From an uncultured Actinomycetota bacterium (lineage in GTDB: Bacteria; Actinomycetota; Humimicrobiia; Humimicrobiales; Humimicrobiaceae), in NCBI GenBank assembly GCA_964517765.1, contig CAZFEN010000001.1, positions 34,345 through 98,344 on the forward strand: a stretch of 64,000 nucleotides of DNA, in the 5' to 3' direction. Of this stretch, positions 3,537 through 34,369 are shown one piece after another; position 1 is the stretch's first letter; each line of letters opens with the position of its first letter. The notes under the pieces are model-generated. The model saw only the letters and a program-made list of their open reading frames with translations. It was not told the DNA's origin and searched no databases. A program made the position numbers and the translations under genes.

Positions 3537-4214
3537 TTGTTTGATTCATTAATAGAAATAATTGGCTTTTCGGTCTGCCACCAGCTTTCTTCAAGAAGCC
3601 TTATGATTGGTAAAATTGTCCTGCCGGTTTGTGCGAGATGCAGTGGTATTTATATCGGGTTTATCATCACAGCCATTATTTTACTGGTAATGTATAGAAA
3701 AAAAGAAAATGGCCTTCCGCCTCTTTATGTCCTTGTGGTCCTTGCACTTTTTTTCCTGTCTACCCTGATCGATGGTATTGCTTCGAATTTTGGTCTATAT
3801 GAGACAAGCAATAATTTAAGATTCATAACCGGTTTTCTTTGTGGGTCATCCATTATGGTAATCATTTATCCTATCTTTACATTTCAATATTACAAACAGT
3901 CAAAACCGAAAAGAATATTCAATAGTGCGGGCGGATTTATGATTTATATCCTGACAATTACGGTATTTATTGTCATCACTCTTATCAGGTTCGATTTCAT
4001 GGGTCGTTTTTACTACTATTTTATTACATTTTCGATTCTTTTTACTTTTTATTTTATCAATATGGTACTTGTGCTACTGATCCCGCCATTTTCTCAAAAA
4101 GCGCACAGGCTTGCCAGTAAGCACTTGATCTTGCCTTCGGTTATAGCGATTGCCCTTTCGTCAATAGAATTGCTTGGCTCCTACTGGTTTCACAGGTTTA
4201 TTACGAACTTCTGA
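3537..4214 (+). CDS. DUF2085-like integral membrane protein
   Basis: 225 aa; N-terminal CHQ...RS and CARCSGIY cysteine motifs followed by multiple TM helices. Confidence 0.45.
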   Translation: MFDSLIEIIGFSVCHQLSSRSLMIGKIVLPVCARCSGIYIGFIITAIILLVMYRKKENGLPPLYVLVVLALFFLSTLIDGIASNFGLYETSNNLRFITGFLCGSSIMVIIYPIFTFQYYKQSKPKRIFNSAGGFMIYILTITVFIVITLIRFDFMGRFYYYFITFSILFTFYFINMVLVLLIPPFSQKAHRLASKHLILPSVIAIALSSIELLGSYWFHRFITNF

Positions 4215-4241
4215 TCTTCAGGCTTAAACCGGATATCCGGC

Positions 4242-4832
4242 CTAAAACAAATTTATTAATCCGTAATTATGATAGATAAAAAAGGTAGTTATGGTGGAGA
4301 TTCCCACACCGAAGATTACCTGATTGACTGTATGTTCTTTGATTCTTACTCTTGCCCAACCTATTACAGGAATAAGGGGGACCATGAGCAGCATCCATCT
4401 GCCGAATAAAATATTAAAAGTAATGACTATAAAAGTTATCCAGCTGGTATGAAGACTGATTTTCCAGAAATAGGTTATGATAGTCAAAATAACAGTAGAG
4501 ACTACGCTTACTGCAAATATGGATTTTAGGAATAAAGGAGCTCCCAGAGTATATAAAATAAGGTAACCTACTATATGACAGATACTTATTATAATTAGGG
4601 GTTTAATTCTTTCTTTCTTATTTAGAACGTGAAAATCAATTATTGTATTCCTTTTCAATAAAAAAAATATATAAAAATAAGGAATTAAAAAGCTAAACAA
4701 TAAACATATAAAAGCCCAGCTTATGGCACTTCTTATATTATCCACAACTTTAAGACAAACAATAAAGGAAACCGGGATTGAAATGAATGTACCATCAAAA
4801 ATATGTGATAATATTCTTGCAAATTTATTCAT
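4242..4832 (-). CDS. hypothetical multi-TM membrane protein
   Basis: 196-aa ORF, hydrophobic helices throughout, no recognisable motif. Confidence 0.45.
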   Translation of the reverse strand: MNKFARILSHIFDGTFISIPVSFIVCLKVVDNIRSAISWAFICLLFSFLIPYFYIFFLLKRNTIIDFHVLNKKERIKPLIIISICHIVGYLILYTLGAPLFLKSIFAVSVVSTVILTIITYFWKISLHTSWITFIVITFNILFGRWMLLMVPLIPVIGWARVRIKEHTVNQVIFGVGISTITTFFIYHNYGLINLF

Positions 4833-4971
4833 TTTTCTTCAACTTTAAAATTTTCTAATATTAATAATTTTTTATTAAATTTACAATTTAACATAATTAA
4901 TATTTAAACACTTTTAATAATTAGTAATTTTTTAAGTAATGCTAATATAATATTTCTTATTATTACATTTT

Positions 4972-5973
4972 TTACATTATACTTTTTATCCATTCAGGTA
5001 GATATTGTATACCTACCGGTATGATAGATATAATTATAATTCCAATAGTAGTCCTTATAGTTTTAAAGTTCGTAGGCCAAATATTTAAAGAATTGATTCT
5101 TTTTTTATATAGAATCAACTTATCAATCTTTTCAAACTCAATTATATTAATCTCTTCTATATTTTTATCTAAAAAACTGTTATGTTCTTTCTGTATTCGA
5201 TAGTTCATTTCATCCAAAGCTTTTTTCTTTTCTAAAAAAAGTTTCTTCCTAATTGGAATTTCAGGTATTAGAAACATACTTATCATAATGATCGCTGAGA
5301 AAGAACAATAGCCTATTATTAATTTCCCCATAGGTAGAACCTTTGCAAATATTATGCTAGTAATACAAACAGATATATATATGCTTCCTATGATTGCAAC
5401 TTCATATGCAATGTTTCTTAAAAATATTATTGATATATTTTCTCTATACCACAACCCTACTTTCACTAGTCTCCCTAATCTTATAGAATATACAAAATAA
5501 GTTATTAGGGAATATAAAGAAAAACCTGTAATGAAATTTATTGAAAATAAAAATATAGATAACAATATAAGAAGTATTTTATTACCCTCCCAAGAACCTA
5601 ATACTTTAGGAGCAAGTCCAATAAGAGATCCATAAATAACCCCTGAAATGCACATTAATTTTAAATTAAAAATTTCTTTTAAAAATCTATCTGACATATT
5701 TCTTTTTTCTTTTATTTCTTTTCCAATTAATATAAATTTAAAGAACTCAAAAGAATTTTTTAAAACGTATTTGCCAATATTCAAGAGTCCCCATAGCAAA
5801 AATGCATTTGCACAAAACAGGAGTATAATAAACGTTGAATCTTTAATGTTTTTTGTAAAAAACCATTGTAAAAAAATATAAGATAATCCAACAATTATTG
5901 GTGCAATAATTAAAATTAGATGAATAGATTTTCTATCGAAAAAAAAATTATTATAAAAAATTTTATTTTTCAT
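4972..5973 (-). CDS. hypothetical polytopic membrane protein, encoded in an AT-rich islet
   Basis: 333-aa ORF with many TM segments; local GC about 20%. Confidence 0.45.
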   Translation of the reverse strand: MKNKIFYNNFFFDRKSIHLILIIAPIIVGLSYIFLQWFFTKNIKDSTFIILLFCANAFLLWGLLNIGKYVLKNSFEFFKFILIGKEIKEKRNMSDRFLKEIFNLKLMCISGVIYGSLIGLAPKVLGSWEGNKILLILLSIFLFSINFITGFSLYSLITYFVYSIRLGRLVKVGLWYRENISIIFLRNIAYEVAIIGSIYISVCITSIIFAKVLPMGKLIIGYCSFSAIIMISMFLIPEIPIRKKLFLEKKKALDEMNYRIQKEHNSFLDKNIEEINIIEFEKIDKLILYKKRINSLNIWPTNFKTIRTTIGIIIISIIPVGIQYLPEWIKSIM

Positions 5974-6130
5974 AAAATCTCCCTATATTTTTAAGTACAT
6001 ATTATTTATATTAATTTCAATTTTAAATAAACGATAAAGATAATTCTTTATGAGTATTCTTATTTTACTTTCTAATTAGAAACACTATAAAATACATTTA
6101 AATATAGAGGATTCATTTAATTATTATTGT

Positions 6131-7078
6131 TTAACCAATATTTATAAAATCTATCAATATTTTATTAACAACTTGATGTTTTTCTTCAATACTGTCATGT
6201 CCTGCTTCATCTATAATTTCTAAACTGGAATTTTTAATATAATTATTAAATCCATAGGCAGAATCAACATTTATCCATTTATCATTTTTGCCCCAGATTA
6301 TAAGAGTAGGAATATTTATACTTTCTAAAAAAGTTTTGATATTATATCTATTAAGACCATTCATAAAACCTTTTATGATTTTTAAAAAAACTTTATTTGA
6401 ATTTTTTATTCTGAAAGGTGTCAAATAATTAACAATAATATTTTCATTAATGAATGAATTATTATAAATTAACGTTCTTAAAATTTTAATGAAATTAGAT
6501 TTTTTTACAAAGAAGTGATAATACATAACATTTATTATTTGATAATTAACAAAGGTTAGGATAAACCTAAAGCGGTTTCTAAAACCAAATCCATCAATCA
6601 GAACCAGTTTTTCAAACTTATCGGGACATAAGCCATAAGCTAATAACACTATTTCACCGCCCATTGAATGACCGATGGCCACCACTTTACCAATTTTTTT
6701 CTTAGTAATAAAATCTAATAATATTCTGGCTTGTTCTATCAATGTATAATCAGAATTTAGCATCCTTTCAGAATATCCATGGCCCTTCAAATCTAATACA
6801 TATACTTTATGATACTTTGAAAGTTCTTCAATGCCATATCTAAATGTAAATATATTTGCTCCAAGGCCATGAATGAAAATAATACTTTTACCTTTATTGC
6901 CTCTTTCTACATAATGAATATTCACTCCTCTTAATTTTATTAAGCTACCTTCTGTTTTAATTTGATTTAAATCTATATTAATAAACTTATTAACTCTAAA
7001 GACAACATAACGATAATATATAAAAATAATTATTACTATAAAACAAATTGGAAATAAATAATAAAATGTTTCTGTCAT
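6131..7078 (-). CDS. alpha/beta-hydrolase-fold protein (esterase/lipase-like) with N-terminal TM anchor
   Basis: HGLGANIFTF oxyanion region and GHSMGG nucleophile elbow; very AT-rich coding sequence. Confidence 0.65.
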   Translation of the reverse strand: MTETFYYLFPICFIVIIIFIYYRYVVFRVNKFINIDLNQIKTEGSLIKLRGVNIHYVERGNKGKSIIFIHGLGANIFTFRYGIEELSKYHKVYVLDLKGHGYSERMLNSDYTLIEQARILLDFITKKKIGKVVAIGHSMGGEIVLLAYGLCPDKFEKLVLIDGFGFRNRFRFILTFVNYQIINVMYYHFFVKKSNFIKILRTLIYNNSFINENIIVNYLTPFRIKNSNKVFLKIIKGFMNGLNRYNIKTFLESINIPTLIIWGKNDKWINVDSAYGFNNYIKNSSLEIIDEAGHDSIEEKHQVVNKILIDFINIG

Positions 7079-7181
7079 AATTTTTTCTTCTATAAGAATT
7101 TAATATTTTTAAGGTTTTTACTATAAATATTTATTTAAAAAACCGTATATACTTCTCTTGCTAGAATAATCCCTATCAAAT

Positions 7182-7215
7182 AAGAAAGACTCCTTTAACT
7201 AGGAGTCCATTATAT
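7182..7215 (-). terminator. hairpin GACTCCT-ttaact-AGGAGTC followed by a T-rich tract on the minus strand; putative terminator of the GGDEF gene
   Basis: 7-bp perfect stem seen in sequence directly downstream of the minus-strand stop at 7252. Confidence 0.35.
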
Positions 7216-7251
7216 TAAAATGAATCAATTTTTAAAACAAGTTTAAGTATA

Positions 7252-8097
7252 TTATTCCATTACTTTTTCATTGGATTTCTTGGCCAGATAGACTTTCTTA
7301 TCTGCTTCTACCATGAAATTTTTAATACTGCATCCTTCCTTATAATACTCTATACCCATACTCAGGTCTGTATTCTGGCAGTTTAATCCTAAAAACTTTT
7401 CTCTTATTCTGCATGCAATTTCCTGTGCGATTTTTCCCTCTGCCTGGTTTATTATTATTAGAAATTCGTCTCCTCCGAATCGGAAACCCAGATCGACACC
7501 TTCTCTTATGTTTTTACGGATAATGCTCCCCAGGCTTTTAAGCAGTTTATTTCCACTCTCATGACCATTATGGTCATTATATTTTTTAAAATTATCGATA
7601 TCGAACATTATAATTGCTACTTTTTCTTTTTTTCTTCTTCCCCTGCTGATTTCCTCGTTAAGCCTTCTGTCCAGATACCTGATATTATATAATCCGGTCA
7701 AATAATCGAGATATGTAGATCTTACCAGTTTCTTTTGAAGCTTCTTATATGAAGTTATGTCAGTGAGAGTAGTAACCACGTATAAAATATTTCCATCGTC
7801 ATCCCTTACGGGGGAATTACTCGCCAGTGTGTTAACTATGGTTCCATCACTTCTCAAGAATTCTATTTCATAATTTAGCGCCGTTTTGCTATTAACAATT
7901 TTTTTAAACCTTTTTCCTTTATGTTTTGGTGAAAGAATACTTAAATACCTTTTACCTACAAGCATGTTCGGATCATATCCATAATCCCTTATCTTTTCAT
8001 TTACAAAAAGGATATTGTTTTTAATGTCTTTTATTACAAATATTTCATTTGTATTCTGAAGTATTTTTTCTATATAAGGTAAAAACTTCTTTAACAT
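7252..8097 (-). CDS. PAS-GGDEF diguanylate cyclase
   Basis: 281 aa; intact GGDEF (FRFGGDEFLII) and upstream DYLTGLYN motif; N-terminal PAS-like segment. Confidence 0.75.
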   Translation of the reverse strand: MLKKFLPYIEKILQNTNEIFVIKDIKNNILFVNEKIRDYGYDPNMLVGKRYLSILSPKHKGKRFKKIVNSKTALNYEIEFLRSDGTIVNTLASNSPVRDDDGNILYVVTTLTDITSYKKLQKKLVRSTYLDYLTGLYNIRYLDRRLNEEISRGRRKKEKVAIIMFDIDNFKKYNDHNGHESGNKLLKSLGSIIRKNIREGVDLGFRFGGDEFLIIINQAEGKIAQEIACRIREKFLGLNCQNTDLSMGIEYYKEGCSIKNFMVEADKKVYLAKKSNEKVME

Positions 8098-28342: not shown

Positions 28343-28477
28343 TTAAGCAGAAAGCTTTTTTCTTCCTTTTTTTCTCCTGCACGCAATTACAGCTCTGCCG
28401 GCTTTGGTTTCCATTCTTATCCTGAAGCCATGAACCTTTTTTCTTTTCCTTGCGTTCGGCTGAAATGTCCTTTTCAT
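28343..28477 (-). CDS. rpmH: 50S ribosomal protein L34 (below the ORF-track size cutoff)
   Basis: 44 aa [44 protein letters not shown] matches the bL34 consensus. Confidence 0.9.
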
Positions 28478-28520
28478 CTTTTACCCAATCTATATATTAT
28501 TGTTTTCAGTCAAGTAGTAG

Positions 28521-28549
28521 ATTATACATTTTAATTTTTCTAATATCAA
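28521..28549 (-). promoter_or_regulatory. sigma70-type promoter for rpmH (TTGATA-17-TATAAT on the minus strand)
   Basis: Hexamers read as reverse complement; about 40 nt upstream of the rpmH start. Confidence 0.5.
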
Positions 28550-28721
28550 GGTTGCCATATTTAAATAAAGTGTTCCTTTAAGCCTTTTTGTGTTTGTCTT
28601 TTCTTTTGAGTACATTATTTATTCAAACACCTGTTCTGGTTAAAGACCCTTCCTGAAAATTATATTTTTTTTATATATATTATGGTGCAATTTCTCATAG
28701 TATTTCAAAAATTTAAACAAC

Positions 28722-28862
28722 TTTTCAACAACTGTTGAAAAAATTGTTGAAAACTTAAAAAATCACACTAAATTATATGTCAAATGATTTTACTCCGAGG
28801 GATTTATCATACAATCTAGTAGCTTTTTCCTTGTTAAAATATTATTATTAATCTGTTGAAAA
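28722..28862. repeat. cluster of four 9-mers TTTTCAACA/TGTTGAAAA, including a perfect inverted repeat TTTTCAACA-AC-TGTTGAAAA; DnaA-box-like (TTATCCACA variant) or operator for the adjacent regulator
   Basis: Instances at 28722-28730, 28733-28741, 28745-28753, 28854-28862; related TT[GC]TCAACA 9-mers recur in the dnaA-dnaN intergenic. Confidence 0.45.
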
Positions 28863-28956
28863 CCTTAAGCTTCTGAAAAGAAAATGAAAAGCAATATCGT
28901 TGATTGATATGTTTTCTGTTAAATAAAACAATTCGCATTTAAAGTTGACATTAATA

Positions 28957-29811
28957 ATGCCTGACGAAAATACTAAACCAAATAATGCTGACGATTCCAA
29001 CAAAATCTATGGAAACATTGAAAAAATACCGGTCAGAATCGCAGTCTATGATAATATGCGGAGCATTCCAAGGATAGTGAATCTCAGCTATGATAATATT
29101 GCGGACTTCATTAATGAAACCACCCAAAAAACCTATAGTCTATCCCATGAGATTGGCGGGAGAATTCCTTATACAATAATAAAAGAGATAATAGAGAATC
29201 TTATACACGCAGATTTCAAAGAAGTTGTGATTACTGTGTTGGAAAGGGGAGACCATATAATCATAACGGACCAGGGACCGGGAATCGAAGACAAAGAAAA
29301 AGCTTTCCTACCGGGATATACTTCCGCTACGAGTAAAATGAAAGAATACATCAGGGGAGTGGGTTCGGGTTTTCCGATAGTAAAAGAAACTATAACTTTT
29401 TCCGGAGGATCTATCGATGTAAAAGACAATATAAAAAGGGGGACGGTAATATCTTTAAAACTTGGACAGCCGGAAAAGAGTGATAGCGTAAAGGATACGG
29501 AAATCAAGACAACCGGTGAGACGATACCTGTTATTCCCGACGAGGATAAAAAAACTCCGGCAGATGGCATAGACAAATTTGATCATAAAGTATTATCCGA
29601 CAGACAAAAGAAGATCCTTTTTGTGATCCTGGAACTGGAAGAAGCCGGGCCTTCTACAATAGCCAGTGAGCTGGGTTTTAGTCTCTCTACTTCATACCGG
29701 GAATTAATCTACCTGGAAAAGAACAAAATGCTTGCCTCCGGCAGCAACGGCAAGAGAAAATTATCTAAAAAAGGCTTAAAATACCTTGAATATTATTCAA
29801 ATACTATTTAA
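28957..29811 (+). CDS. GHKL/histidine-kinase-like ATPase domain fused to a C-terminal winged-helix DNA-binding domain; function unknown
   Basis: N-box EIIENLIHA, G1 DQGPGI, G2 GVGSGF; C-terminal KILFVILELEEAGPSTIASELGFSLSTSYRELIYLEKNKML. No SD; start at ATG 28957 (TTG 28945 and ATG 29056 are alternatives). Confidence 0.6.
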   Translation: MPDENTKPNNADDSNKIYGNIEKIPVRIAVYDNMRSIPRIVNLSYDNIADFINETTQKTYSLSHEIGGRIPYTIIKEIIENLIHADFKEVVITVLERGDHIIITDQGPGIEDKEKAFLPGYTSATSKMKEYIRGVGSGFPIVKETITFSGGSIDVKDNIKRGTVISLKLGQPEKSDSVKDTEIKTTGETIPVIPDEDKKTPADGIDKFDHKVLSDRQKKILFVILELEEAGPSTIASELGFSLSTSYRELIYLEKNKMLASGSNGKRKLSKKGLKYLEYYSNTI

Positions 29812-29823
29812 GATTAGAGTACT

Positions 29824-31185
29824 ATGTCGGACCTACAAAACATCTGGAAAAATACTCTCGAAGATATTAAAAACAATATTAATCTCCCTACATATAAAGC
29901 CTGGTTTGAACATATAACACCCCTTTCGTTAAAAAAAAACTGTTTAACGGTTTCAGTCGGCAGTAACTTCGCAAAAGAGTGGCTTGAGTCCAGATACTCT
30001 AATCTTCTATCCGAATCAATAAAAAGAGTGACCAACAATTCATGTAAAATAAAAATTGTTACTGCACCCGGAAGTTCCGAAAATACCAGCGGCAAATATG
30101 ATACCTATATTGGCGAAACCCTCGAAGAGGAAGGGTATCCCTTTAAACAAAACAAAAATTCTCTTTTCAATTCAAAGTACACTTTTGATACATTTATCGT
30201 TGGAAGCAGCAACAGGTTTGCCTGTACCGCCTCTCTTGCAGTCAGCGAGAATCCCGGCAAAGCTTATAATCCATTGTTTATTTACGGGGGAGTAGGATTG
30301 GGAAAGACGCATCTTCTGCATGCAATCGCACAATATACGATGCAGCTGCATCCCAATAAAACTATAAAATATGTTTCGGCCGAAAGATTTCTTAATGATT
30401 TTATTAATGCTCTCCGTTATAAAAACATCTTTTCTTTTAAAGAAAGCTATAGAAACAACGATATTTTGCTTGTCGATGATATACATTTTCTCGAGGATAA
30501 GGAGGCCAGCCAGGAAGAATTTTTTCATACATTTAACGCTCTTCATGATACCAATCGGCAGATAGTCCTCTCGAGCGACAGGGCGCCAAAAAATATTTCC
30601 ACTCTTGAGGAAAGACTCCGGTCCAGGTTTGAATGGGGCCTGGTAACAGATATCAAGCCGCCGGACCTTGAAACAAGACTGGCAATTTTAAAAAATTATT
30701 CTAAAAGAGAAAATATATCGGCCTCTGATGATATATTAAATTTAATTGCCGAAAAAATTACTTCTAACATCAGAGAGCTGGAAGGTTCCCTTACAAGAAT
30801 AGTCGCATTTGCTTCCCTTACCGATTCCAAGCCTGATTTAAACATGGCCAAAAACATACTAAAAGATATTTTACCCGATGACATAGAACACAAAATAAGT
30901 ATTCAAACAATTATTAAAGAAGTATCAAGATATTTCTCCATACCCATAAATGATATTATAAGTGCCAAGAGGAATAAATTCATATCACATGCGCGCCAGC
31001 TGGCAATGTATCTATCCAGAGAGCATACCAGCAGTTCTTTGCCCAGAATCGGAAAGTCTTTTGGGAACCGTGACCATTCAACTGTAATATACGCCGTCTC
31101 AAGAATCTCAAATCTTATAAATACCGATAAAACTGTCTACCTGCAGATTCAGGAAATTACAAACAAGATAAAGACGTCTACATAA
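29824..31185 (+). CDS. dnaA: chromosomal replication initiator DnaA
   Basis: 453 aa; AAA+ Walker [15 protein letters not shown], sensor motifs, C-terminal DNA-binding domain IV. Confidence 0.95.
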
Positions 31186-31321
31186 AACCTGACTGCCCAT
31201 GTTTAAAACCTGTTAAATAATAAAGAAAGTTCTTAGCAATCAGCGGCTTTTCTGGTTCAAAACTAACCATCTTCTTTTTTTTATATATTTCTTTTACGGC
31301 TTTGAACAGCTTTAAACCATA

Positions 31322-31470
31322 TTGTCAACAAGTATCATTGCGGGACAGGCCGCAATTTCACTGTCTTTTTTTACTCTTCCAACATTCTCAACATGTATTA
31401 TAACTATTACTGACTATTTAAATTAAACATTATATATAATAAAATATGTTTATATTTCAAACATTAAAAG
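31322..31470. promoter_or_regulatory. putative oriC segment: three same-orientation 9-mers TTGTCAACA / CTTCCAACA / TTCTCAACA followed by a very AT-rich tract (candidate DUE), between dnaA and dnaN
   Basis: Motifs at 31322-31330, 31375-31383, 31385-31393; AT-rich 31396-31470; a GCCGCAAT hairpin after the dnaA stop. Confidence 0.4.
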
Positions 31471-31486
31471 AAATTAGAGGGTTACA

Positions 31487-32596
31487 ATGAAATTTCAAAC
31501 TACAAGGACCGACCTTCTGGAAACTATTTTATTTGCCAGCAGAGCAATAAGTCCCAAAGCTTCATCGTTTATTTTGAATGGGATAATGCTTGATGCTGAA
31601 GAGGGCTTAACCGTATATAGTACCGACCTGGAGACAAGTATAAAATGTACAATGGAAGTAAAGATTCTTGAAAAAGGGAAAGCGGTGGTACCCGCAAGGA
31701 TTCTGGCGAATATATTAAAAAGCCTGAAAGAATCAAAAATAGAGCTGGAGCTGGATAAGGCAAAGAACCAGGTAAAAATTAGTTGCGAAAACGCTTTTTT
31801 TACATTAAACACACTATCTCTGGAAGAATACCCGGTTTTTCCCGAAACAAGGAAAGAAAATTATTTAAAGGTGAACCTGAACAAATTTAAGGACATGGTA
31901 TCAAAAGCAGAGAAAGCGGCATCTATGGATGAAAGCAGAGCAATCTTAACCGGAGTGCTTCTGGAGATCGGGGACGACATGTTGAGCATGGTAGCAACTG
32001 ACAGCTACAGGCTTGCTCTGGTTAAAGAAAAAATAGGCGGCGGAAGACAGCCGATAAAAGTCGTGGTACCTTCAAAAGTTCTCGATAATATTGTTAAAAG
32101 TGAATTTAAGGATGGAGATATCGAGATAAACATCGAAGAAAATCAGGCAAGTTTTTACATGGAAAGCGCCAGCAAGAAAAAGATTATAATGGTTTCAAGA
32201 TTGCTTTCCGGAAAATTTCCGGAATACAAACAGCTTATTCCTCAGAACATGAAGCACGACATAATAGTAGATAAGGAAAAAATGCTTGAGGTAGTAAAGA
32301 GGATTTCATCTATCTCGCAGGACAACATACCAATAAAGACCACTATCGATAAAGGTAAAATAACGGTATCTATGAATATCAGGGAAGTTGGAAGTTCCAG
32401 CGAGGATTTTGATGTTTCATATGGAGAAGAAAAAATGGAGATAGCCTTTAACCCCGAATTTTTAATCGACGGTATAAATATAATGGATGAGAAGAATATA
32501 ATATTCTCGATAGAGGAACCTCTTAAGCCTATTTTAATAAAATCTGAAAAAAACAAAGACTTGATTTATTTGCTTATGCCCATCAGGGTCTCCTAG
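31487..32596 (+). CDS. dnaN: DNA polymerase III beta sliding clamp
   Basis: 369 aa; three-domain clamp; follows dnaA. Confidence 0.9.
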   Translation: MKFQTTRTDLLETILFASRAISPKASSFILNGIMLDAEEGLTVYSTDLETSIKCTMEVKILEKGKAVVPARILANILKSLKESKIELELDKAKNQVKISCENAFFTLNTLSLEEYPVFPETRKENYLKVNLNKFKDMVSKAEKAASMDESRAILTGVLLEIGDDMLSMVATDSYRLALVKEKIGGGRQPIKVVVPSKVLDNIVKSEFKDGDIEINIEENQASFYMESASKKKIIMVSRLLSGKFPEYKQLIPQNMKHDIIVDKEKMLEVVKRISSISQDNIPIKTTIDKGKITVSMNIREVGSSSEDFDVSYGEEKMEIAFNPEFLIDGINIMDEKNIIFSIEEPLKPILIKSEKNKDLIYLLMPIRVS

Positions 32597-32635: not shown

Positions 32636-33553
32636 ATGGAAAAAACAAAAAACATAAATCTGTGTGTCATTGGTGCAGGAAGGGTTGGTATAACAATATG
32701 TTACACACTTGCCCTGAGAAGATCATCGGGTGTAAAAGTAAGGGCCATATCCTCGAGATCGGCGGAATCTTTAAAGAGGGCAAGGAAGTTTTTAGGAGCT
32801 GGAGCGGCTGATATAATTTTTACCAGGGACAATGCGAAAGCCGCGGCACTTGCAAATTGTGTTTTAATATGTACCCCGGATGATTCTATAAGCACAGTTA
32901 GCGATAATATTTTTAAAAACAAAAAAAATAGTTATTTGAAAGATTATTATGTATTTCATTTCAGCGGATCGAAGACGCTTGCGGTTCTGGATTCTGCAAG
33001 AGCCGCAGGAGCCGAAATCGCATCCATACATCCGTTAAAATCTTTTGCTTCAGTGGAAGAAGCTATTAAATCTCTGCCAGGAACCGTATTCGGAGTAACT
33101 TTTTCAAGTATAAAATCAAAGGAAATAGCAGAATTTCTGGTGAGAAATCTCGGAGGGGAAACTCTCGAGGTAGAAAACGAAAAAAAACCGCTCTATCATG
33201 CGGCAGCATGCATCGCTTCAAACTATCTTGTAACTCTTATAGATTATGCCGTATCGATACACAAAAGGATAGGGATAAAGCCGGAGGATTCGTTAAAAGG
33301 TTTAATAAGCCTGGCGGAGGGAACAGTAAACAATATAAAAAAAATGGGAACAAAGAAATCCCTGACCGGTCCGATAGCCAGAGGGGATAAGGGAACCATA
33401 AGGGAACATATGGCAGGTTTCAATAAATTTTTTCCAAAAGAGTATGCTGATTTGTATAAAACTATGGGAATAGAAACAAGTAAAATCGCGTATCAAAATA
33501 AATGGATAGATAAAAACACAGCAGAGGAGTTAAGGGAAATACTTAAGGGATAG
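32636..33553 (+). CDS. Rossmann-fold NAD(P)-dependent oxidoreductase with DUF2520-like C-terminal domain; candidate ketopantoate reductase by context
   Basis: N-terminal GxGxxG (VIGAGRVG); C-terminal LTGPIARGD motif; immediately upstream of panB-panC-panD. Confidence 0.55.
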   Translation: MEKTKNINLCVIGAGRVGITICYTLALRRSSGVKVRAISSRSAESLKRARKFLGAGAADIIFTRDNAKAAALANCVLICTPDDSISTVSDNIFKNKKNSYLKDYYVFHFSGSKTLAVLDSARAAGAEIASIHPLKSFASVEEAIKSLPGTVFGVTFSSIKSKEIAEFLVRNLGGETLEVENEKKPLYHAAACIASNYLVTLIDYAVSIHKRIGIKPEDSLKGLISLAEGTVNNIKKMGTKKSLTGPIARGDKGTIREHMAGFNKFFPKEYADLYKTMGIETSKIAYQNKWIDKNTAEELREILKG

Positions 33554-33568
33554 AGAGGGGATATTGCC

Positions 33569-34369
33569 ATGTTGAAAAAAATAACAACAAAAGATCTTGT
33601 TGAAATGAAAAAGAAGGGCGAAAAAATAACAATGCTTACCGCATATGATTGTCTGATGGCATCGCAGCTGGACGAGTGCGGCATAGACTTGATACTGGTG
33701 GGAGATTCTGTGGGAAATGTTCTTCTGGGATATAAAAATACCATACCGGTTTCGATGGATGAAATGATCCATCACTGTAAAGCAGTCTGCCGCGGTGTGG
33801 AAAGGGCAATGGTGATAGGAGATATGCCATTTATGTCTTATCAGGCAAGTGTTGCCGGGGCGGTAAGGAATGCCGGAAGATTTTTAAAAGAAGCCGGAGC
33901 AGAAGCAGTAAAACTGGAAGGCGGGAAAGAAATCCTTTTGACCATAAATAAAATCGTCGATTCAGGGATTCCGGTAATGGGACATCTGGGATTTACTCCG
34001 CAATCTGTTTATAAGTTCGGCGGTTATGGCGTCAGAGGAAAAGACGAAGAGCAGGCTAAAAAGATGATAGAAGATGCCAGTGCGCTTGAGGAAGCCGGAG
34101 TATTTTCGATAGTGTTGGAGAAGATTCCAGCAGAGCTTGCAAAAAAGATAACACGAAAGATCAGCGTTCCCACGATAGGAATAGGAGCAGGGGTAAACTG
34201 CGACGGACAGGTGCTCGTAACACATGATATGCTTGGATGTTTTGAAAAATTTAAACCAAAATTTTCAAAAAGGTATGCTGAATTGGGAATAGAAATGAAG
34301 AAATGCTACACGAAATATATAGAAGAAGTAAAAAATAAGAAATTTCCCTCAGACGAACATTCCTATTAG
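33569..34369 (+). CDS. panB: 3-methyl-2-oxobutanoate hydroxymethyltransferase (ketopantoate hydroxymethyltransferase)
   Basis: 266 aa; TAYD and LVGDSVG motifs. Confidence 0.9.
   Translation: MLKKITTKDLVEMKKKGEKITMLTAYDCLMASQLDECGIDLILVGDSVGNVLLGYKNTIPVSMDEMIHHCKAVCRGVERAMVIGDMPFMSYQASVAGAVRNAGRFLKEAGAEAVKLEGGKEILLTINKIVDSGIPVMGHLGFTPQSVYKFGGYGVRGKDEEQAKKMIEDASALEEAGVFSIVLEKIPAELAKKITRKISVPTIGIGAGVNCDGQVLVTHDMLGCFEKFKPKFSKRYAELGIEMKKCYTKYIEEVKNKKFPSDEHSY

Follow-up and report, generated by a model that had tools for sequence, protein, structure and literature searches.

We describe here a gene located between rpmH and dnaA in an uncultured bacterium of the Actinomycetota (class Humimicrobiia, family Humimicrobiaceae), which encodes an ATPase domain of the GHKL type fused to a winged helix. 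The window, i.e., the whole stretch of DNA that was analysed, comprises 64,000 nucleotides (nt) (contig CAZFEN010000001.1 of GenBank assembly GCA_964517765.1, positions 34,345 to 98,344 of the forward strand), and its cumulative GC skew reaches a minimum at ~28-32 kb, consistent with a replication origin at the locus. The open reading frame (ORF) extends on the plus strand from a TTG start at 28945 to 29811 (288 amino acids, aa), and an in-frame ATG at 28957 yields 284 aa. As the ATG is conserved among relatives while the TTG is found in few of them only, the 284-aa protein is the likelier product. The stop codon (29811) and the start of dnaA on the same strand (29824) are separated by 12 nt, as a preliminary description of the locus had reported; moreover, the motifs quoted there (EIIENLIHA, DQGPGI, GVGSGF and ILFVILELEE...KNKML) are all present in the translation.

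The ORF is a real gene that is translated, and its protein family is large and as yet unnamed. Compared with five close relatives (81-98% protein identity), the ratio of nonsynonymous to synonymous substitution rates (dN/dS) was 0.05-0.15 for the whole gene, i.e., purifying selection. The ratio was 0.015-0.11 in the ATPase core (aa 21-171) and 0.06-0.20 in the winged helix (aa 208-284), and was clearly raised in the N-terminal tail (aa 1-20) and the interdomain linker. Thus low dN/dS in the two folded domains marks a translated gene with two constrained domains. That the ORF is spurious or untranslated, for which only the missing Shine-Dalgarno sequence in the window's clade could speak, has next to no probability: it is refuted already by this conservation, and further contradicted by full-length homologues in the thousands whose catalytic motifs do not vary, by Shine-Dalgarno sites in other clades and by confidently predicted folds.

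No Shine-Dalgarno sequence precedes either the TTG or the ATG in the window gene, and this absence is kept across its clade, while strong GGAGG-type sites precede the gene in other clades. The missing site is thus peculiar to the window's clade: its absence had been correctly noted for the window gene but does not hold as a trait of the family. Two explanations for it were rejected: i) a structured leader RNA, as RNAalifold predicted 0 pairs and Rfam found nothing in the window; and ii) a leaderless mRNA, as neither the TTGACA at 28945-28950 nor the stretch just before the ATG is conserved.

The N-terminal part of the protein is a Bergerat-fold ATP-binding domain. Pfam HATPase_c matched aa 72-170 with an E-value of 3.2e-11 (44.1 bits against a cut-off of 26.4). 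The full-length AlphaFold model, built from 32 homologues, is confident over aa 21-171, disordered over aa 172-207, and shows at aa 210-282 a winged helix of three helices plus a beta-wing (predicted local distance difference test, pLDDT, 80-90); a separate model of aa 21-172 reached a pLDDT of 90.8 and a predicted template-modelling score of 0.87. Among 47 divergent members sharing 28-55% identity with the window protein, N81, H84, D105, G107, G109, G134, G136, G138 and N158 were invariant in all, and in less divergent member sets E77 and E80 were invariant as well. HATPase_c matched all 47, HTH_IclR 36 and TrmB 25, while HisKA matched neither these nor the window protein. The N-terminal domain therefore carries the features of the GHKL (Bergerat-fold) superfamily, namely N-box, G1 (DxGxG), G2 (GxGxG) and an alpha/beta sandwich; the C-terminal domain carries those of the MarR/TrmB/IclR type, namely a three-helix bundle with a beta-wing together with the profile matches. 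The architecture that had been proposed from the letters thus stands, except for its ~70-aa leader: in the models only aa 1-20 form a free tail, and residues 21-70 fold into the ATPase domain as a beta-hairpin plus helix. In an NCBIfam scan only generic histidine-kinase, MutL and SpoIIAB models responded, all far under their cut-offs (e.g., 24.3 bits against 135 for spIIAB), and the protein is therefore covered by no curated family. Longer family members have longer linkers or low-complexity tails only; extra domains were sought in them and none was found. Linker length varies, with insertions in some homologues (L023:6507-6612 and L104:5510-5751); the reading frame of L023 is broken inside the linker, perhaps by a frameshift in sequencing or because the gene is split there.

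The profile of the 47 members, searched against PDB sequences, retrieved KinB and CheA (with a common lid motif, PGF(S/T)T), the N-box region of MutL, and SpoIIAB, and the structural neighbours of the ATPase model were histidine-kinase catalytic domains, SpoIIAB, PDK and the topoisomerase II ATPase. Yet the protein departs from each of these classes. Unlike two-component histidine kinases and CheA, it has no DHp/HisKA, HPt or sensor domain but a fused winged helix; the model contains no helical hairpin, and a beta-hairpin and one helix lie N-terminal to the N-box. The gene tables that were inspected list rpmH, rnpA, yidC and jag on one side and dnaA, dnaN, recF and gyrB on the other, with no response regulator gene next door. 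The GHL ATPases (MutL, GyrB, Hsp90, MORC) have a transducer domain of the ribosomal S5 fold with a catalytic lysine, whereas here the fold stops at aa 171 and a disordered linker follows, with no Pfam match to a transducer; the likeness to MutL is confined to the segment from N-box to G1.

The anti-sigma serine kinases SpoIIAB and RsbW deserve separate consideration, as the protein might act on the DnaA protein itself through SpoIIAB-like, ATP-dependent sequestration or phosphorylation, with the winged helix serving as an interaction or tethering module. This is the main rival reading of the gene, possible if unlikely. Its features of the kinase class would fit, as would an ATPase domain that stands alone as in SpoIIAB and a winged helix with little charge (median net charge +1, range -5 to +5 in the 47 members). 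On the other hand, HATPase_c_2 matched one of the 47 members only, and weakly (E 0.002); the gene tables that were inspected list neither a STAS antagonist nor a sigma factor; no conserved phospho-acceptor is identifiable; and the nearest structural neighbour is no kinase. The window protein moreover has an extra linker and winged helix compared with SpoIIAB and RsbW. By HATPase_c_2 signature and gene neighbourhood, the protein lacks the defining traits of the anti-sigma kinase type, which had been raised beforehand.

That nearest structural neighbour is DIP2311 of Corynebacterium diphtheriae (PDB 3lmm), a "predicted transcriptional regulator" of the COG2865 type (AlbA_2, HATPase_c_4 and helix-turn-helix). 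In it, too, a winged helix comes after an ATPase-like domain, and the structure of the full-length model is closely similar and can be aligned with it across both domains. We know of no established function for DIP2311. The window protein might thus be a trimmed COG2865/DIP2311 relative with the role of that group, possibly defence or stress and not replication. We regard this as highly improbable. The protein resembles the C-terminal module of COG2865/DIP2311 in shape but fails its sequence criteria: it lacks the AlbA_2 (Schlafen-like) domain, with no Pfam match to it and a start only ~20 aa ahead of the ATPase domain; HATPase_c_4 (E<=0.01) matched 0 of 47 members; and 3lmm did not come up when solved structures were searched by sequence, even at E-values up to 1. 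Unlike DIP2311, it has the canonical HATPase_c motifs intact and its gene is locked to dnaA. There were also no defence-family matches beyond the helix-turn-helix and no plasmid copies of the family, and the chromosomal place at the origin is fixed.

The family is large. A search with the single protein returned 1,511 homologues at E<=0.001, an exhaustive search returned 304 clusters at 50% identity (E<=1e-30), and a search with a profile of distant members returned at least 5,431 clusters at 90% identity (E<=1e-10). Carriers include Candidatus Humimicrobiaceae and Hydromicrobium, i.e., the clade of the window itself (class Humimicrobiia), as well as other Actinomycetota, a metagenome-assembled genome (MAG) of Coriobacteriia, MAGs of Bacillota and Clostridia, and one MAG labelled Acidiferrales; the GC content of the locus ranges from 27 to 69% across them. 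Product names given to the family are "ATP-binding protein", "hypothetical", "predicted HTH transcriptional regulator" and "anti-sigma regulatory factor". In the MAG labelled Candidatus Acidiferrales (Acidobacteriota; L114/L115, protein P0393) the gene order is dnaA-dnaN-S4_2-recF-DciA-RemA-like-gyrB-gyrA; as this order was judged typical of Bacillati, the label is doubtful and the contig is probably misbinned or mislabelled.

Linkage of the gene to dnaA was examined in 118 loci, of which 24 came from species-representative genomes, 80 from metagenomes (scanned with an alignment of 10 sequences) and 14 from exact protein look-ups. It was testable in the 103 loci with at least 300 nt of downstream sequence, and in 101 of these dnaA follows the gene directly (99 by tblastn on the same strand, two by domain table or pairwise alignment). 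The two exceptions are short contigs: a scrambled one of 1.4 kb (L076), where the junction between the C-terminus of the gene and dnaA is intact though inverted, and one of 1.6 kb with a truncated ORF (L082). Five further short loci also show the N-terminus of DnaA (tblastn, 5/5; two also by eye). The linkage persists at identities down to 41% and spans 28 clades that are less than 75% identical to one another. On the other side, 81 of the 84 loci that could be tested have a divergent rpmH no more than 1.6 kb upstream, and the linkage to dnaA is kept in one locus where a PEBP-family gene replaces rpmH. The unusual place of the gene and its attachment to dnaA, first noticed in the window only, are therefore found across very divergent lineages.

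The spacer between gene and dnaA measures 9-12 nt across the window's clade and elsewhere is likewise short, usually a few to ~25 nt, holding the GGAGG-type Shine-Dalgarno sequence of dnaA; in one locus the two genes overlap by 1 nt. No terminator-like site was predicted on the plus strand between them. With the same strand, a minimal spacer, no terminator and an upstream control region in common, the pair has the features of a dnaA operon, and the expectation that the gene would be co-transcribed with dnaA is supported by the very short gap and by the DnaA boxes and promoter-like blocks upstream of the gene. The two proteins would accordingly be made in near-fixed proportion.

Operonic coupling kept over such distances generally marks proteins of one process or complex. 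Alternatively, the protein could be a conventional transcription factor that senses ATP or a ligand, or a nucleoid protein, with targets outside initiation; all it would gain from the dnaA operon is a gene dosage set by the nearby origin and an expression tied to growth rate. Such a role would agree with a winged helix of the widespread MarR/IclR/TrmB type, with the lack of any DnaA-related domain, and with the search of the origin region, which yielded no specific operator. But a placement driven by expression alone would not be expected to persist in 101 of 103 loci, in clades down to 41% identity and with GC contents of 27-69%; the dnaA junction was kept where the rpmH side changed, and no family member was seen away from dnaA. 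We therefore consider a role unrelated to replication rather improbable.

Four copies or variants of the 9-nt motif TGTTGAAAA lie upstream of the gene (Table 1), the first two head to head. These sites, which had been put forward as candidate binding sites of the ATPase/winged-helix protein, are most likely the lineage's variant DnaA boxes, because they are positional equivalents of TGTGGAAAA or TGTGGATAA and track the DnaA signature. In an alignment of the upstream region of 13 related loci the four boxes stand at fixed columns, where some relatives have TGTGGAAAA and others mixed pairs; where the window has TGTTGAAAA, sister lineages show TGTGGAAAA or TGTGGATAA; and distant clades have 3-8 canonical TGTGGATAA or TGTGGAAAA boxes in the same upstream region. 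The DnaA signature RDH(S/T)TV(I)YA has Tyr in clades with A-variant boxes, while other clades have His in its place. In the C-terminal signature of DnaA (window 31060-31100 and loci L007-L079), clades with A at box position 6 (TCAACA/TTAACA) show ...HARQ... and RDH(S/T)TVIYA, and clades with canonical TCCACA boxes show ...PRQ... and RDHTTV(M/I/L)HA, a pattern which may reflect co-variation of the initiator with its box. The reading of TGTTGAAAA as a site of the new protein was rejected as the simplest one, as the box variants follow the DnaA signature and not the recognition helix of that protein, which might nonetheless bind these sites too.

A head-to-head pair, TC(C/A)ACA-NN-TGT(G/T)GA, was found in 21 of 28 non-redundant carrier clades, well over shuffled controls; with its fixed 2-nt spacer it forms a perfect or near-perfect 20-bp palindrome (e.g., window 28722-28741; L032, L098 and L110). 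In both spacers flanking dnaA there were 0 canonical TTATCCACA boxes even with one mismatch allowed, whereas TTNTCAACA occurs six times in the ~780 bp of these spacers and three times elsewhere in the 64 kb. The local origin annotation is thereby corrected, in that the lineage most likely uses DnaA boxes of the TT(N)TCAACA type. The spacer between dnaA and dnaN, with two related boxes and an AT-rich tract, is probably the second half of the origin.

In nearly all clades the box clusters lie upstream of the gene and not of dnaA. Autoregulation of DnaA via boxes in its own promoter region has been described in E. coli, B. subtilis, Streptomyces lividans and mycobacteria, and the cluster upstream of the gene matches such a classical autoregulated dnaA promoter (PMC8203912). 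The cluster is best read as an autoregulated dnaA promoter or as the left half of the origin.

The remaining elements of the control region were defined mainly by the alignment of the 13 related loci. An invariant block directly before the fourth box, with a -10-like sequence, is a candidate promoter of the operon. Behind it, an invariant direct repeat lies ~65-85 nt before the start codon, in an AT-rich and otherwise variable leader. The promoter-like site of rpmH is inside a block that is invariant in the 13 loci. Between the two promoter-like regions, a TCAAACA-NN-TGTTCT element looks operator-like; no equivalent was found in distant clades. One locus (L006) carries a 3.4-kb insertion upstream of this element, while from TTCAAACATCTGTTCT onward its control region is intact; the inserted genes lie between the rpmH promoter and the element, so that the element marks how far upstream the control region accompanying the gene extends. 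The two inserted genes (L006:2372-5531), both on the minus strand, are a glycosyltransferase of family 2 (267 aa) and an ORF of 762 aa without Pfam match. The motif (G)TAGTAG, which occurs in two invariant rpmH-side blocks (28513-28521 and 28806-28812), presumably resembles the DnaA-trio repeats of the B. subtilis origin.

Downstream of dnaA, a GC-rich hairpin (ATTGCGG-GACAGG-CCGCAAT, 31337-31356) lies ~150 nt past the dnaA stop codon and is followed 8 nt later by a T-run on the plus strand; it could be an attenuator, a terminator or an origin element. After dnaN, positions 32636-34369 hold an uncharacterised ORF of 305 aa and another one which, by eye, we take to be a ketopantoate hydroxymethyltransferase; distant carriers have recF-gyrB after dnaN, unlike the window, i.e., downstream synteny differs. 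Farther away, positions 4001-8000 have a GC content of 0.27, against about 0.35-0.39 elsewhere, with three minus-strand ORFs of 281-333 aa, and may have been horizontally acquired.

Table 1. Coordinates (window numbering) of the genes, protein domains and sequence elements at the rpmH-dnaA-dnaN locus.
Feature	Position	Strand	Basis
rpmH (ribosomal protein L34), divergent neighbour	28343..28477	-	ORF and translation
rpmH promoter-like site, TTGATA, 17 nt, TATAAT	28521..28549	-	11/12 consensus positions
TCAAACA-NN-TGTTCT element	28623..28637		Half-sites invariant and 2-nt centre variable in 13 loci
Three probable DnaA-box variants: TTTTCAACA, 2 nt, TGTTGAAAA, 3 nt, TGTTGAAAA	28722..28753		Exact matches
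Invariant block with -10-like TAAAAT/TATTAT (TAAAATATTAT), candidate operon promoter	28804..28849	+	13-locus alignment
Fourth probable DnaA-box variant (TGTTGAAAA on the plus strand)	28854..28862	-	Exact match, alignment
Invariant direct repeat TG(A/G)AAAG-N4-TGAAAAG, presumed leader	28874..28891	+	Alignment
ATPase/winged-helix gene, 284-aa product (including stop codon)	28957..29811	+	Homologues, HATPase_c, dN/dS
Bergerat-fold ATP-binding domain, aa 21-171	29017..29469	+	HATPase_c, AlphaFold models
N-box, KEIIENLIHA	29182-29211	+	In ATP-binding domain
G1, DQGPGI	29269-29286	+	In ATP-binding domain
G2, GVGSG	29356-29370	+	In ATP-binding domain
Disordered linker of variable length, aa 172-207	29470..29577	+	pLDDT <50; raised dN/dS
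MarR/TrmB/IclR-like winged helix-turn-helix, aa 210-282	29584..29802	+	Model and profile matches
Gene-dnaA spacer, 12 nt, GATTAGAGTACT	29812..29823	+	Sequence
dnaA	29824..31185	+	ORF; Bac_DnaA domains recorded in orthologous loci
dnaA-dnaN spacer with AT-rich tract	31186..31486		Box matches, GC skew
TTGTCAACA in dnaA-dnaN spacer	31322-31330		Related TCAACA box
TTCTCAACA in dnaA-dnaN spacer	31385-31393		Related TCAACA box
dnaN	31487..32596	+	ORF

The linkage of the gene suggests for its product a role as a regulator of replication initiation or of dnaA expression. Specifically, we propose that the protein is a nucleotide-gated, DNA-tethered partner of DnaA which modulates initiation or transcription of the operon, a reading to which we assign a probability of roughly 45%. 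In such a mechanism, i) the protein would be made together with DnaA, from a promoter under DnaA's own control; ii) ATP (or ADP) in the Bergerat domain would set its self-association or its binding to partners; iii) the winged helix would hold it on the DNA at the origin or the dnaA promoter region; and iv) the output would be an altered activity of DnaA at oriC or an altered transcription of the operon. A further, quite tentative reading is a new class of initiation regulator, i.e., an ATP-dependent "anti-initiator" or kinase which, made in fixed proportion with DnaA from an operon under DnaA control, would bind it directly at or near oriC and gate initiation by nucleotide or energy status.

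Several observations weigh against a DNA-tethered partner of DnaA. First, a search for operators in the upstream and dnaA-dnaN spacers of the 28 non-redundant clades (palindromes with half-sites of 4-6 nt and spacers of 0-12 nt, plus k-mers, against shuffled controls) singled out only DnaA boxes and their head-to-head pair; as only DnaA boxes are conserved across clades, no operator can be named for the protein. Second, its recognition helix, SLST(S/A)YR(E/D)L, is the same whatever the box variant. Third, the winged helix is not markedly basic and, with a net charge near neutral, could bind protein instead of DNA. Fourth, the ATPase domain comes with neither a histidine-phosphotransfer domain nor a GHL transducer domain, so that its chemistry (binding only, hydrolysis or kinase) is not deducible. 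Finally, the named sources of the family are all MAGs, and no cultured carrier was identified.

A DnaA partner of this kind would be unrelated in sequence to the known regulators: as had been supposed at the outset, Pfam and NCBIfam scans gave only HATPase and helix-turn-helix matches and no homology to YabA, SirA, Hda, DiaA/HobA, Soj, SeqA or DnaD, nor to Spo0A, CtrA or MtrA. Like the new protein, Soj and Hda have a nucleotide-binding domain, and the origin-binding response regulators Spo0A, CtrA and MtrA have a DNA-binding domain of the transcription-factor type; like the known DnaA regulators, the protein could thus fill the niche of a DnaA- or oriC-coupled factor. To our knowledge, none of these regulators has a Bergerat fold, and none is conserved across phyla as the cistron directly before dnaA. 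Archaeal Orc1/Cdc6 also combines an ATPase with a C-terminal winged helix and is encoded beside the origin, but its ATPase is of the AAA+ and not the GHKL type, and the likeness is an analogy which implies no homology. What sets the protein apart from other fusions of a GHKL-like ATPase and a winged helix is the canonical ATP motifs and the bond to dnaA. A full-text literature search, whose coverage was incomplete so that absence is unproven, brought up no account of such an ATPase/winged-helix gene in the rpmH-dnaA interval, and the conserved operonic bond of the family to dnaA appears to be undescribed.

Control of DnaA is known in detail for a few model bacteria only, and the regulators found there are lineage-restricted and mutually unrelated. 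Against this background stands a widespread unnamed family, practically never apart from dnaA, with an intact nucleotide pocket and a winged helix, encoded behind a cluster of probable DnaA boxes. If the protein acts on DnaA or oriC, a new fold, GHKL, would be added to the repertoire of initiation control, and initiation control in large, little-studied groups of bacteria from sediment, subsurface, soil and digesters would be explained. Were the "anti-initiator" or kinase reading true, the protein would be the main device of DnaA control in extensive branches of Actinomycetota and Bacillota with few cultured members, which may lack the regulators known from model bacteria. Moreover, thousands of natural pairs of the protein and DnaA make the question open to co-variation analysis and simple biochemistry.

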